Below are positions 7,097 through 47,849 of a stretch of DNA of 64,000 nt, piece by piece. The first letter of the stretch is position 1; every line of letters begins with the position of its first letter. Source of the DNA: Escherichia phage EP02SG. The notes under the pieces are model-generated. The model was not told the DNA's origin. It ran no database searches and saw only the letters and a program-made list of their open reading frames with translations. Both the position numbers and the translations under genes were made by a program. The stretch is taken from sequence record PQ301181. One strand, given 5' to 3'.

Positions 7097-7449
7097 TCTG
7101 AGAGCTTCCTGAGGTCTTCTGCAAAGGAATCAAAGGACCTGTTGATTTGTTTTTCGACCAATCCTGGCTTACTTGCCACCACGTTCTTCTTCTTCGAATC
7201 CTTACGGAGCTTTTCATTTTCAGCCTTAAGTTTGTCAACTAAAACACGGTTCTTATAAGTCATTTCTTCGATTGACTGATATTGAACCTTGAAGTCGTCT
7301 AATACTTTAGCATTGTTTTTAGCGGTCTCTTTGACAGAAGCTAATTCAGTATTCAACGAATCAACTTTGTTGTTTAAGACAACTATTGTTACCGTAGAAA
7401 CTAGAGCAAAAGCTGCTACTATAGCATAAATCGGATTTACTTTAAGCAT
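7093..7449 (-). CDS. membrane-anchored coiled-coil protein (118 aa)
   Basis: N-terminal hydrophobic helix then charged coiled-coil-like region. Confidence 0.5.
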   Translation of the reverse strand: MLKVNPIYAIVAAFALVSTVTIVVLNNKVDSLNTELASVKETAKNNAKVLDDFKVQYQSIEEMTYKNRVLVDKLKAENEKLRKDSKKKNVVASKPGLVEKQINRSFDSFAEDLRKLSE

Positions 7450-43773: not shown

Positions 43774-44199
43774 TTATTTAAATTTAATTTTCTGAAGTGC
43801 ATCAATTGCAGCCAAACGCCCTTGTTCACTTTTAACTGTAATGACCACATCGCCTGATACGATCACCGAACCATCAACAAATTCTATAGAGCCTTTTTTG
43901 AAATCGACAGCTGTATCTGATTCCGGAACTTCTTCAAAGAATTTAAATTCTGCACCATAAAGCAGAATATCACCTTGCATACTATGAATAGTTCGGCCAT
44001 AATCGCCTACGGCTTCTACAGCAATAACCGAAACGCCGTAACCAATCATCTCTTCCACAATAAAATCTTTAGACAATAAAGTAGTATGCAGATTAGTATT
44101 AAGACGTTTACCAGTCGTATTAAGAATTCTCAAGAAATTATCTTCCTGTCCTTTGATAATACGATATTTCTTACCAACTTCAAAACCTTTAAAAGCCAT
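43774..44199 (-). CDS. hypothetical protein (141 aa)
   Basis: ORF track; hairpin 43762-43773 downstream. Confidence 0.5.
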   Translation of the reverse strand: MAFKGFEVGKKYRIIKGQEDNFLRILNTTGKRLNTNLHTTLLSKDFIVEEMIGYGVSVIAVEAVGDYGRTIHSMQGDILLYGAEFKFFEEVPESDTAVDFKKGSIEFVDGSVIVSGDVVITVKSEQGRLAAIDALQKIKFK

Positions 44200-44201
44200 A
44201 A

Positions 44202-44381
44202 TTAACCCTTCTTAAGTAAGTCGTAAAAACCACCGTTCACATGTTTAGGAGCAGAAACCCGACGAGTAGACAGACGATGACATTCAGGGCAAACATCGTT
44301 TTCTCGTTCAGAAATCCTTTTAATTTTTTCATATTCATGACCACAATCTTCAGATTGACATTTATAGTCGTATAACGGCAT
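44202..44381 (-). CDS. FmdB-family zinc-ribbon protein (59 aa), hand-translated
   Basis: MPLYDYKCQSEDCGHEYE...CPECH: MP.Y.Y.C..CG..FE-type CxxC...CxxC ribbon; stop 3 nt from next gene start. Confidence 0.5.
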   Translation of the reverse strand: MPLYDYKCQSEDCGHEYEKIKRISERENDVCPECHRLSTRRVSAPKHVNGGFYDLLKKG

Positions 44382-44383
44382 TA

Positions 44384-44812
44384 TTATTCCTTAAAATGTG
44401 CTTTCAACATTTGATACAAAGACCATGCCTGGTCATTATTTTCGATAGTAATCGTCATCACAGGAAATTCAGACAATTCTTCAAGTTCACCAGAATCTTG
44501 CTCTTCGGACGCTTGATATGGATTTTCAACTTCGTCAAAGAACTCTGCTTCATTCGTGGAGAGCCAGATAAAGTTTTCATCAAGGATATCACCGCCTGTT
44601 GCGTATCCAACCGTGCCAGTAGATGTCACAATTTTAGTAGGACGACCAAGATGGTCAACATCTAATACTTTAAATGGTTCCATGCCAAGACGTCGTGCAT
44701 AAATCCCATTATCAGTGTGGTCTTTAATAAACTCTTCTTGGGCACGTTTATCTATAAATTGGTACCATGAGTTAACGCGGAATTTATTAGCCATTAGTAA
44801 GTTTCCTTCCAA
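44384..44812 (-). CDS. hypothetical protein (142 aa)
   Basis: ORF track. Confidence 0.5.
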
Positions 44813-45021
44813 TAAGTTGTACCGTTTTCAGTGATTTCACGGAAGATGCCATAGATAGGCATTTCGTCACCGGGTTTTTCGTAAACGTAAACCACTTCGG
44901 TGTAGCATAAAAATTCAGTCCAATTTTTCTGTACAACAACTAAATCAGGATTAAACAGAACATCTTCAAACTCATCGATGTTTGAATCAGTAGTTACGTT
45001 TTTAATGATTTGACGTTTCAT
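44794..45021 (-). CDS. hypothetical protein (about 75 aa)
   Basis: Track ORF 44794..45066 trimmed to ATG 45019-45021 with GAGGAGA SD; track extension crosses promoter. Confidence 0.45.
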
Positions 45022-45078
45022 AATATTCTCCTCTTGTTTTGATAGGTCTATAGTATCATAGGCCATAGTTGTTGTACA

Positions 45079-45603
45079 TCATTTTAGCAAAATAAAATCA
45101 ACTTGTTCTGCCAATGAACGTCTAAACATTAATTGACAACTTCCGAGGATGAAATCAGGTGCTTCATAGACCGCGATGTAGTATCCTTTAGCTTTCAAGA
45201 GTTCAACATCCACCTGGTCATCAAACCATGCATAAACCGCGTCAACACTTTCAAATCCAAAATAGAACCCTTGGGCCCAATCTTCACTCAATTCAAATGT
45301 GTGCTCAATTCTATAGTATCTTAAGATATTTTGTTCAAGGAGTTTATCTTCATTTACTGTAGGACGATTAGGAACATTATAGTTGTCGCCGTGATGGTAG
45401 AAGTTACCTGAGATTATTCCATGTTTATCAAGGAACTCCCATGTTTCTTCAGAGTTGTCGGTGCCCGACCATCCGTATGGCGAACGAGGTTCTTTATTCC
45501 AAGAGGTTTCCCAAATTCTGACGGCTTTACCATCTTCGATAGCAATTCCTGGTAATGATTCACGTTGAGTACAAAAACTACGTTCTACGCGGTAAACTAA
45601 CAT
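45079..45603 (-). CDS. hypothetical protein (174 aa)
   Basis: ORF track; GAGGAGA SD and promoter-like element upstream. Confidence 0.55.
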   Translation of the reverse strand: MLVYRVERSFCTQRESLPGIAIEDGKAVRIWETSWNKEPRSPYGWSGTDNSEETWEFLDKHGIISGNFYHHGDNYNVPNRPTVNEDKLLEQNILRYYRIEHTFELSEDWAQGFYFGFESVDAVYAWFDDQVDVELLKAKGYYIAVYEAPDFILGSCQLMFRRSLAEQVDFILLK

Positions 45604-45662: not shown

Positions 45663-46082
45663 TTATGCGAAAGCAGCTTGGATATATTTTTTAATTTGGA
45701 ATTCAGGAACTACCATGAACTGACCAGCGAAAACGATGTTATAAAGCTTAACACCGTCTTCAACCCATTGGTCACTAATGAAGCCGGCGATTTGCTTAGT
45801 TTTCCACGGCGTTCCATCAGTTGCCGAAGCAATAGTGAATTCATGGTCTTTTTCAACAGAAACTGATCTGCATAGTCCCCATTTGAACGCTTTTTCTTCT
45901 GGTTCAATGAATTGGCTTGAGACGTAGCCAATATTACCATTAGCATCACGAACTTTAACTTGGTTACGACCAAAAACCGGATCACTCACAGAAAGAACTT
46001 CAACCAACTTCCCGGCAACTTTAGAGCGAGAAGCAACAGATACATATACGTAATCACCTGTAGAGAGATTTACAATATTCAT
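45663..46082 (-). CDS. hypothetical protein, tandem paralog family member A (139 aa)
   Basis: Shares N-terminal SASRSK.AG.LVEV and C-terminal FISDQWVEDG.KLYNIVF.G.F.VV motifs with ORF 46092..46547. Confidence 0.6.
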   Translation of the reverse strand: MNIVNLSTGDYVYVSVASRSKVAGKLVEVLSVSDPVFGRNQVKVRDANGNIGYVSSQFIEPEEKAFKWGLCRSVSVEKDHEFTIASATDGTPWKTKQIAGFISDQWVEDGVKLYNIVFAGQFMVVPEFQIKKYIQAAFA

Positions 46083-46091
46083 AATAATTCC

Positions 46092-46547
46092 TTAAGCTTT
46101 ACGAGGAGACACATAGCGAGTGATTTCAGATTCTTTAACAACTCGGAAGTCACCTAAGAATACGATATTGTATAACTTTTCACCATCTTCAACCCATTGG
46201 TCACTGATGAAGCCGCACATAATATCAGTTTTGTTTGGATAACCATATTCGTCGATGAAATCAAATTCTTTATCAGTCCGGAATTCAACGCCTTTGCAAA
46301 GGGCCCATTTGAACTGTACATTAGGTTCAGTAGAAGCAAAATGAGCGCTCACATGAGTTTCCAAGAATTTAGGACTTACGTAAGCGTACTGAGTTTCAGT
46401 TTTTCCAGAACTAGGAATGATTCGAACTTTAACTTCTTTAACACGTCCAGTACCATTAGTACGAAGTCCTACCACTTCAACTAGACGACCTGCAGCTTTA
46501 GAACGAGATGCAGACGATACACGCTTAATTTCACCAATAGTAATCAT
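46092..46547 (-). CDS. hypothetical protein, tandem paralog family member B (151 aa)
   Basis: See paralog A; own promoter-like element 46579-46609. Confidence 0.6.
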   Translation of the reverse strand: MITIGEIKRVSSASRSKAAGRLVEVVGLRTNGTGRVKEVKVRIIPSSGKTETQYAYVSPKFLETHVSAHFASTEPNVQFKWALCKGVEFRTDKEFDFIDEYGYPNKTDIMCGFISDQWVEDGEKLYNIVFLGDFRVVKESEITRYVSPRKA

Positions 46548-46611
46548 AATTTCTCTCTCTCTTTGTTTAAATTGAATTCATTATACTCCATCCATCCTTG
46601 GATGTACAACA

Positions 46612-47106
46612 TTAATTAAGGATATTAACCACAGCACTACGTGGAACTACACTAAAATCACCTGCATGAACAACGTTCAGAAGTTCAACACCGTCTTCAA
46701 TCCACTGATCAGTTACCCATCCATTTACTGGACCTGCGAACGGACGTCGAATTGAAACATATTTACACAACAAATCAGTAGGCTCAATAGGCTTAATCAG
46801 AGTACCGTACATACAAGCGATATCCATATCAATACAGATATCTTTAACGGGTTCTACTTCTTTAATCAACAGTTCAAAGTCGGTGCTTGGAAGGGCGGTA
46901 GTAGAAATTGTACCATATGAATTTTTAATTTCTAAGAATAACCAAGGGCCTTCAACTTGTTTGATGAAGTTAACAATAGTGAAACTATTACCTTGAGTGG
47001 CACCTAAAATTTCACAAAACTTTTCATAAGCTCGCACTGAAGCACCATACCAGTTGATTTGTTTTTCATCTTTCAGGATGTAAGTAGCCGTTGTATTGAT
47101 ATTCAT
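46612..47106 (-). CDS. hypothetical protein, tandem paralog family member C (about 164 aa)
   Basis: C-terminal W.TDQWIEDGVELLNVVHAGDFSVV matches paralogs A/B; start trimmed to ATG 47104-47106. Confidence 0.55.
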   Translation of the reverse strand: MNINTTATYILKDEKQINWYGASVRAYEKFCEILGATQGNSFTIVNFIKQVEGPWLFLEIKNSYGTISTTALPSTDFELLIKEVEPVKDICIDMDIACMYGTLIKPIEPTDLLCKYVSIRRPFAGPVNGWVTDQWIEDGVELLNVVHAGDFSVVPRSAVVNILN

Positions 47107-47171
47107 AATGTTTTCCTGTTTGGTTAAGATAGAAAGATTATACTCCAACCATCCTTGGTTGTAAACTGGTT

Positions 47172-47849
47172 TTATCGCTGTTTTACACTTAACGGGTCAG
47201 GATTCTCAGGGACATCTTCAAGGCCAAGCGCATAACGCTGAGCATATTTTAACATCAAAATATCTTTAGCACAATCGTGAATACTATCATGGGCAACGAA
47301 TCCTTTTAGCGTACCCATCGGTAATGGACACATACTTAATCCTCGTGTCAACGAGTAAGCTTCGATTGCTGTACGAATATCACGTTGAGCCCAGAATTTA
47401 ACCGGTTCTAATTTATCAGTATCAATATCTGGTTCAAGAACACCTTCATCACGATAGAGATCACGAATCAAATCTACCAAGATCGGGAAGTCAAAGCTCA
47501 TACCACGGCACCACATCTGTGATTTCCATTGGTCAACTTTATTAGCTCGGCAATAGTCTAAAAAGATTTTAATGCCTTCAAGCGTAGTGACATCGTCTTC
47601 AGACGGAGCCAAGTTTTTACGTGCTTCAGCTGATTGTTCTTTCCACCATTTCATAGTGGTTTTAGCGAAAACTCGCTTCCCTTTCTGAGAAGCTAAATTA
47701 AATTTAATTCGTTTACCTCGTTGAACAAGTTCTTCAAATGATTCAACAACTTCAGGGTCGGAATTATATGCAATAACCGCAAGGTCAATAACAGCCGCTT
47801 TTGATGTATTGCCGAATGTTTCAAAATCTATAATAACATCAGTGCTCAT
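47172..47849 (-). CDS. dexA: exonuclease A (DnaQ-like 3'-5' exonuclease)
   Basis: 225 aa (T4 227); Exo motifs DFETFG and HDSIHD. Confidence 0.85.
   Translation of the reverse strand: MSTDVIIDFETFGNTSKAAVIDLAVIAYNSDPEVVESFEELVQRGKRIKFNLASQKGKRVFAKTTMKWWKEQSAEARKNLAPSEDDVTTLEGIKIFLDYCRANKVDQWKSQMWCRGMSFDFPILVDLIRDLYRDEGVLEPDIDTDKLEPVKFWAQRDIRTAIEAYSLTRGLSMCPLPMGTLKGFVAHDSIHDCAKDILMLKYAQRYALGLEDVPENPDPLSVKQR

Follow-up and report, generated by a model that had tools for sequence, protein, structure and literature searches.

What are the three small genes that lie side by side next to the dexA exonuclease gene in the 64,000-nucleotide stretch of Escherichia phage EP02SG (PQ301181) analysed here, referred to below as the window, and what might they do for the phage? 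A sequence-only reading had described them as a tandem triad of diversifying paralogues, each with its own early promoter, and had proposed membership of a host-takeover or anti-defence family. We numbered the three open reading frames so that ORF3, ORF2 and ORF1 follow one another in the order of transcription; their positions are given in Table 1 together with those of the neighbouring features.

Table 1. Features of the triad and its surroundings in the window, with mean protein identity and dN/dS against 12 related loci.
Feature	Coordinates	Strand	Description	Mean protein identity	dN/dS
dexA exonuclease	47172..47849	-	upstream neighbour; so annotated in 96-98% identical phages		
ORF3 early promoter	47137..47165	-	sigma-70/T4-early-like; TTTACA, 17-nt spacer, TATAAT; 11/12 consensus		
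ORF3	46612..47106	-	164 aa from ATG; full-length motB.1-type gene	94%	0.19
ORF2 early promoter	46580..46608	-	TGTACA, 17-nt spacer, TATAAT; 10/12 consensus		
ORF2	46092..46547	-	151 aa; probable motB orthologue	90%	0.24
ORF1	45663..46082	-	139 aa; second, shorter motB-like copy	92%	0.16
motB.2 homologue promoter-like site	45657-45630		own site; promoter scan		
motB.2 homologue	45079..45603	-	174 aa; aligns with T4 MotB.2; phrog_1106; named motB.2 in RB69		
cef ORF	44794-45066				
GoF-like ORF (142 aa)	44384-44812		phrog_622		
gene 39.2	44202-44381		small zinc-ribbon gene		
GoF-like ORF (141 aa)	43774-44199		phrog_622		
dda, dexA, motB.2, cef			dS ~0.09-0.15	97-99%	0.04-0.06

That three consecutive minus-strand ORFs carry a common C-terminal block was borne out by multiple alignment, BLASTP and tblastn. 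ORF1 and ORF2 were 44% identical over their whole length (BLASTP, E 7e-33), and the alignment placed in both of them the N-terminal (S/V)ASRSKxAGxLVEV block, in agreement with the earlier observation of SASRSK-x-AG-x-LVEV in the 139- and 151-aa ORFs. ORF3 matched ORF2 (E 3e-10) and ORF1 (E 4e-11) over the C-terminal 29–36 aa only. The C-terminal block reads GFISDQWVEDGVKLYNIVFAGQFMVVPE, GFISDQWVEDGEKLYNIVFLGDFRVVKE and GWVTDQWIEDGVELLNVVHAGDFSVVPR in the three ORFs, all of which contain the core G[FWY][IV][ST]DQW[IV]EDGxxLxN[IV]V..G.[FY].V[IV], and its 69-nt DNA core is present in three copies that are 72% identical. When each block was searched by tblastn against the 64 kb in six frames, the three copies recovered one another with E values of 1e-9 to 1e-14, and the whole window contained no fourth copy, the next best match having E > 0.05. 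Residues D, Q, W, E, L, N and V of the core were invariant over 37–41 homologues.

All three ORFs scored above the gathering score of 25 bits for Pfam PF17613 (motB, modifier of transcription), with 131.1 bits for ORF2 over its full length (E 4.4e-38), 75.2 bits for ORF1 in two stretches (E 7.1e-21) and 36.3 bits for ORF3 over its C-terminal 80 residues only (E 6.7e-9). Among the PHROGs families, ORF1 (E 4.3e-51) and ORF2 were assigned to the MotB-like phrog_1671 and ORF3 to phrog_2333 (E 1.4e-82), the latter match spanning residues 10–178 of a 178-aa reading from a TTG codon, which corresponds to the stretch from five codons before the ATG to the end of ORF3. The KOW-like N-terminal domain with the SRSK-AG-LVEV motif is present in ORF1 and ORF2 and absent from ORF3, which was therefore filed under MotB.1 and not MotB. 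From these matches we consider it highly probable that ORF3 is motB.1, ORF2 is motB and ORF1 is a second, lineage-specific motB copy. The triad does not stand outside the well-characterised T4 families, since its three genes match the T4 motB/motB.1 family and the RB69-type arrangement has been published (PMC7827196). In their survey, Patterson-West et al. (2021) divided the family into categories, in which MotB proper ('Category 1') has a KOW-like N-terminal domain, MotB.1 is 'Category 2', and the MotB.1-type categories carry different N-terminal domains on the same C-terminal domain (PMC7827196); for RB69 they listed two motB genes, one motB.1 gene and a 29-aa peptide (PMC7827196). As this gene set is published, the triad has already been described: the literature covers the MotB family, the fact that it is duplicated and precisely this RB69-type order. 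The discovery value of the locus is small, and many near-identical phage genomes already annotate MotB-like genes.

The 3.6 kb surrounding the triad is 96–98% identical to many Mosigvirus (RB69-like) genomes, and by this measure of sequence the window is that of a Mosigvirus. Related Mosigvirus records label the triad genes 'modifier of transcription', 'MotB-like protein' or 'transcriptional regulator'. The gene order srd-dda.1-dda-dexA-[motB family]-cef-goF agrees with that of T4 and RB69, and the RB69 genome (NC_004928) has the identical order dexA, motB.1, motB, MotB-like, motB.2, cef. ORF2 was 95% identical to RB69 MotB (P0159) and ORF1 92% identical to its RB69 counterpart, in the RB69 block motB.1 / RB69p012 / motB / RB69p010. 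The motB.2 homologue, which is the 'hypothetical ORF' of the sequence-only reading, has no sequence relation to the triad. It lies 3′ of the motB copies, adjoining cef, whereas in T4 and RB68 it lies upstream, adjoining dexA, which is a local rearrangement of gene order between genera.

ORF2 was 48% identical to T4 MotB over its full length (E 2e-44) and shares with it the KOW-like N-terminal domain with an SRSKAAG motif, the C-terminal core, an early promoter and a location flanked by dexA and cef; it differs in its shorter linker (151 versus 162 aa in all) and in its C-terminal domain, which is acidic in ORF2 and mildly basic in T4. ORF1 also has the architecture of T4 MotB, at 37% identity, but it has almost no linker, lacks the 'IIPxxGK' hairpin and carries a net charge of 0; T4 has no second copy of the ORF1 type. 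ORF3 was 47% identical to the single-frame version of T4 MotB.1 over 99% of its length, with which it has in common both the N- and C-terminal domains, the location directly upstream of motB and an early promoter of its own. The 164-aa ORF3 differs by a 22-aa linker insertion bearing DMDIACMYGTLIKPI, an insertion that T4 lacks.

The same comparison revealed that motB.1 is split in the reference genomes of both T4 and RB69. In the T4 reference (NC_000866.4 / AF158101.6; UniProt P39415; NC_000866.4 7141–7650) the gene encodes only 119 aa ending in DQWIGRWR before the stop codon, because of one extra G near position 7300 (ATTGGAAGA rather than ATTGAAGA). The next frame after this end reads EDGVELLNVVHAGEYSVVPRSAVVAILN up to its stop codon and so supplies the part of the MotB-type barrel that the annotated protein lacks; T4 motB.1 was compared with positions 46612–46800 of the window. 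Thirteen other T4-type records, which include T4T, 'T4 wild', GT7, several recent T4 assemblies, RB55 and RB59, hold an intact single-frame MotB.1 of 143 aa with the full MotB-type C-terminal barrel, and T4T and MT984581 annotate a 432-nt motB.1 gene. The two-piece form was found only in the two T4 reference entries, and it seems that an inserted base cuts reference T4 motB.1 short. Kim et al. (2025) gave NC_000866.4 coordinates for their motB.1 amber-mutant recombination plasmid, reported a 13.8-kDa MotB.1 monomer and observed no phenotype for T4 motB.1 deletion or mutants (PMC12152347); the monomer size agrees with the truncated protein. Given the truncated reference gene, negative results from constructs built on NC_000866.4 may concern an incomplete protein, a point of practical value for workers on T4 early proteins. 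The RB69 reference motB.1 (NC_004928 8376–8872) has one extra base in each of two places, both in T runs, when set against the window and other Mosigviruses, and these split it into a 132-aa product and the 29-aa RB69p012 ('Category 3', PMC7827196). On this alignment the two products are pieces of one gene, and the insertions are likely to be a sequencing error or a strain-specific mutation. In the window ORF3 is intact, as it is in about 100 Mosigvirus-type records.

Tandem paralogues within an early transcription unit had been proposed, and this was upheld; the further proposal of one early promoter per gene held for ORF3 and ORF2, both of which have a strong sigma-70/T4-early-like site, and failed for ORF1, upstream of which a promoter scan found no promoter-like site on the same strand. 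The promoters and 5′UTRs of ORF2 and ORF3 form a duplicated 48-nt block that is 77% identical and does not occur elsewhere in the window, and a 27-nt promoter pattern occurred twice in the window against 0 expected occurrences. The promoter seems to have been copied along with the gene. ORF1 starts 9 nt past the ORF2 stop and has its own AAGGA Shine-Dalgarno sequence. Because of this short gap and the lack of a promoter site, ORF1 is probably co-transcribed with ORF2, judging from spacing, and the ORF2 promoter would serve both; the 9-nt junction was kept in every related locus inspected. A weak MotA-box (middle promoter) match with a poor −10 (TACAGT) lies inside ORF2 at 46313–46338, and we did not count it as a promoter of ORF1, since the window contains such patterns at only about twice the expected frequency. 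The start of ORF3 is likely to be the ATG at 47106, which has an AGGAAA Shine-Dalgarno sequence 6 nt upstream. The TTG at 47148 that would give the 178-aa reading was rejected as a start codon, as the promoter −10 region covers it and homologues have a length of 164 aa.

AF2 models of ORF2 (pLDDT 84.9) and ORF3 (pLDDT 81.8) each showed two beta domains separated by a disordered linker. In ORF2 a basic KOW-like N-terminal barrel is followed by the linker and the C-terminal barrel; in ORF3 the N-terminal domain is of MotB.1 type, modelled as five strands plus helices, the linker contains the DMDIACMYGTLIKPI motif and the C-terminal barrel is of MotB type. The C-terminal domain was modelled with confidence in both as a helix-free, five-stranded barrel of about 50–60 residues. 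ORF1 has a short linker and a near-neutral charge. The folds are predicted to be SH3/Tudor/KOW-like barrels, with the nearest viral structure models being MotB.1 and MotB relatives; eukaryotic and bacterial SH3-like barrel modules such as the 53BP1 tandem Tudor, PWWP, BAH and NusG/Spt5 KOW domains resemble them in fold only, at 10–20% sequence identity, and this likeness does not make the triad a member of those groups. There was no solved relative, as a search of PDB sequences with the MotB profile gave only a chance-level E of 0.9. An OB-fold cold-shock-type DNA-binding C-terminal domain has been proposed for MotB from a published HHpred prediction. No OB-fold protein was named among the best 60 structure matches listed for either the ORF2 or the ORF3 model, in a whole-protein search that is blind to individual domains, and the HHpred proposal thus gained no confirmation.

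The distribution of charge bears on where DNA is bound. The N-terminal domain of ORF2 has a net charge of +8 (pI 10.7) and its C-terminal domain −3, the whole of ORF1 is neutral and ORF3 has a net charge of −7 (pI 4.7). The C-terminal domain common to the three is neutral in ORF1 and acidic in the other two. Together with its predicted SH3/Tudor-like fold, this non-basic character suggests that the common C-terminal domain may not be the DNA-binding part, a second point of use to those who study T4 early proteins. As it is not basic, DNA binding is suggested to reside in the KOW-like N-terminal domain of MotB, and the role that the C-terminal domain has in all three proteins may be a different one, for instance binding of a partner or self-association.

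A short conserved motif was also noted in the disordered linker of ORF3, D[MFT]D[IV][AV][CS][MA]Y..[LP][IV].P[LI], at about residues 90–104 (46795–46840 in the window). Other family members have it either N-terminally or in the stretch that links the KOW domain to the C-terminal domain; its carriers are P0029, P0037, P0038, P0047, P0058 and P0256–P0259, and T4 MotB.1 does not have it. It may be a putative mobile short linear interaction motif.

A tblastn search with ORF1 matched 766 phage records. In 207 of the 766 there was an ORF1-type copy with 80% identity or more and, in addition, a second matching place in the record; the other 559 had a match below 60% identity only, and no match fell at 60–80%. 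This gap in identity leads us to regard the extra motB copy as a discrete lineage, which occurs in Mosigvirus and some Tequatrovirus (for example RB68, RB27 and JK45). The MotB family as a whole is narrow: when 1.84 billion cluster representatives (50% identity) were searched with a profile, no more than 27 matched, and those inspected had the KOW-linker-C-terminal domain or MotB.1-type architecture and came from T4-like phages. An IMG/VR scan with ORF1 gave only 15 loci, 3 of them of ORF1 type, for which reason evolutionary rates were calculated against 12 related loci from GenBank phage records (Table 1). The dS of the triad genes was 0.18–0.30; that of dda was 0.40, a mean that takes in the divergent RB68 locus. 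The triad is a divergence hot spot, yet it is under purifying selection. The description of the paralogues as diversifying was therefore right in that they diverge more than their neighbours between close phages, and wrong in so far as dN/dS of 0.16–0.24 denotes purifying selection and dS is also raised. Gene content varies as well, with the Shigella phage JK45 having motB and the second copy and no motB.1, and RB68 keeping the T4 gene order. P0149, a metagenomic protein of 163 aa, is a chimera of a T4-type MotB N-terminal domain and linker with an ORF1-type C-terminal domain. P0149 and JK45 are signs that the block has undergone recombination and has lost genes, and the raised dS, variable gene content and chimeric allele are better explained by old alleles being exchanged than by positive selection.

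The proposal of a host-takeover family agrees with the T4 member, MotB, which is a host-takeover protein (PMC6070864, PMC7827196). T4 MotB is an abundant early protein that is toxic in E. coli, binds tightly and without sequence specificity to unmodified and glucosyl-hmC DNA, co-purifies with H-NS/StpA and alters the H-NS footprint at proV; 75 host genes are up-regulated, about one third of them in the H-NS regulon, and burst size is increased 2-fold (PMC6070864, PMC7827196). The phage transcriptome is unchanged and direct H-NS contact was not found (PMC7827196). We infer all biochemical activity of the triad by analogy with such relatives. ORF2 most likely works like T4 MotB, which we state with less confidence than its identity, and its basic N-terminal domain is compatible with DNA binding of the T4 MotB type. 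The triad most likely arose through tandem duplication and the shuffling of domains, with a small, conserved C-terminal beta-barrel as the constant element. ORF3 and ORF2 would each be transcribed from a copy of the duplicated early promoter, and the ORF2 transcript would also carry ORF1. As a homologue of T4 MotB, ORF2 would probably be abundant within minutes of the onset of infection. With its basic KOW-like N-terminal barrel it would cover host (and phage) DNA irrespective of sequence, and it would remodel H-NS/StpA-DNA complexes, with H-NS-silenced genes being de-repressed and phage yield modestly increased as a consequence. ORF1 and ORF3 have the common C-terminal barrel but not the basic character, and their binding targets have probably diverged. 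As neither is basic, they may not share the ability to coat DNA, and MotB-type DNA binding, toxicity and H-NS co-purification are doubtful in the neutral ORF1.

Three other explanations of the triad found little support. That the common motif is a chance or low-complexity coincidence among unrelated ORFs might be suggested by the shortness of the block that joins ORF3 to the other two (~30–36 aa). This reading has next to no probability and is refuted by pairwise E values of 3e-10 to 7e-33, by the scores of all three ORFs above the curated Pfam threshold, by the invariance of the block in dozens of homologues and by its confident prediction (pLDDT > 90) as a beta-barrel. An anti-defence or counter-defence locus, in which arms-race paralogues would each neutralise a different host immunity protein, would account for the triad being the most divergent part of an otherwise 99–100% conserved block in a non-essential early region, with protein identity of 90–94% against 97–99% in the flanks, dN/dS of 0.16–0.24 against 0.04–0.09, and the gene content of JK45, the gene order of RB68 and the chimeric P0149 allele as signs of variability. 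However, dN/dS well below 1 and raised dS fit exchange of old alleles and not positive selection, and the characterised member targets DNA and H-NS, not a defence system. We found no literature linking motB or motB.1 to a defence system, and nothing that ties the motB family to the anti-defence function that the sequence-only reading had put forward. PADLOC, whose library contains defence and not anti-defence proteins, gave no match for the triad or the motB.2 homologue. The distinction from the MotB-like explanation is also incomplete, as H-NS silencing can itself be viewed as a defence, and we regard a dedicated anti-defence role as improbable.

An equally slim chance is given to an RNA-directed role, in which the proteins would be RNA chaperones or modulators of mRNA stability or translation acting through the KOW-like (ORF1, ORF2) and LSm-like (ORF3) barrels. 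Kim et al. (2025) grouped the N-terminal domain of MotB.1 with GoF and Frd.2 as one LSm-like family, characterised by a bent antiparallel sheet of five strands, and the D25Y mutant of GoF stabilises an mRNA (PMC12152347); goF-like genes also lie nearby in the window (43774–44812). ORF3 had a weak BFVD match to a GoF (E 0.055), and the 141-aa GoF-like ORF of the window weakly cross-matched phrog_2333 (E 0.001). A profile-profile comparison (hhalign) of the MotB.1 family with the two GoF-like proteins of the window was not significant (probability < 2%), however, and the published LSm-like relationship between MotB.1 and GoF thus received no confirmation from sequence. T4 MotB.1 was moreover inert in an RNA reporter assay (PMC12152347), in which the construct was the truncated 119-aa form, and ORF3 is acidic.

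The identity of the triad as motB.1, motB and a second motB copy would also accommodate a broader, unlikely though somewhat less remote reading. Here the C-terminal domain would be an acidic Tudor/SH3-like module that binds a partner common to all three or associates with itself or with its paralogues, and not a DNA-binding OB fold, in a charge-graded set of paralogues comprising a basic DNA-coating MotB, a neutral MotB-like copy and an acidic MotB.1. These would assemble on, or compete for, one target, for example H-NS/StpA-DNA filaments. If so, the MotB.1 experiments would need revisiting, because the T4 construct that was tested lacked the last 28 residues of the barrel.

Two further observations concern the genes that follow the triad. 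The GoF-like ORFs are a second diverged tandem paralogue pair in the same early block, with gene 39.2 sitting between them. In the cef ORF an ATG giving 90 aa is possible, but the product annotated in related phages has 75 aa (228 nt) and residue 16 is the first to match Pfam T4_Cef; the 90-aa reading is probably an over-extension.
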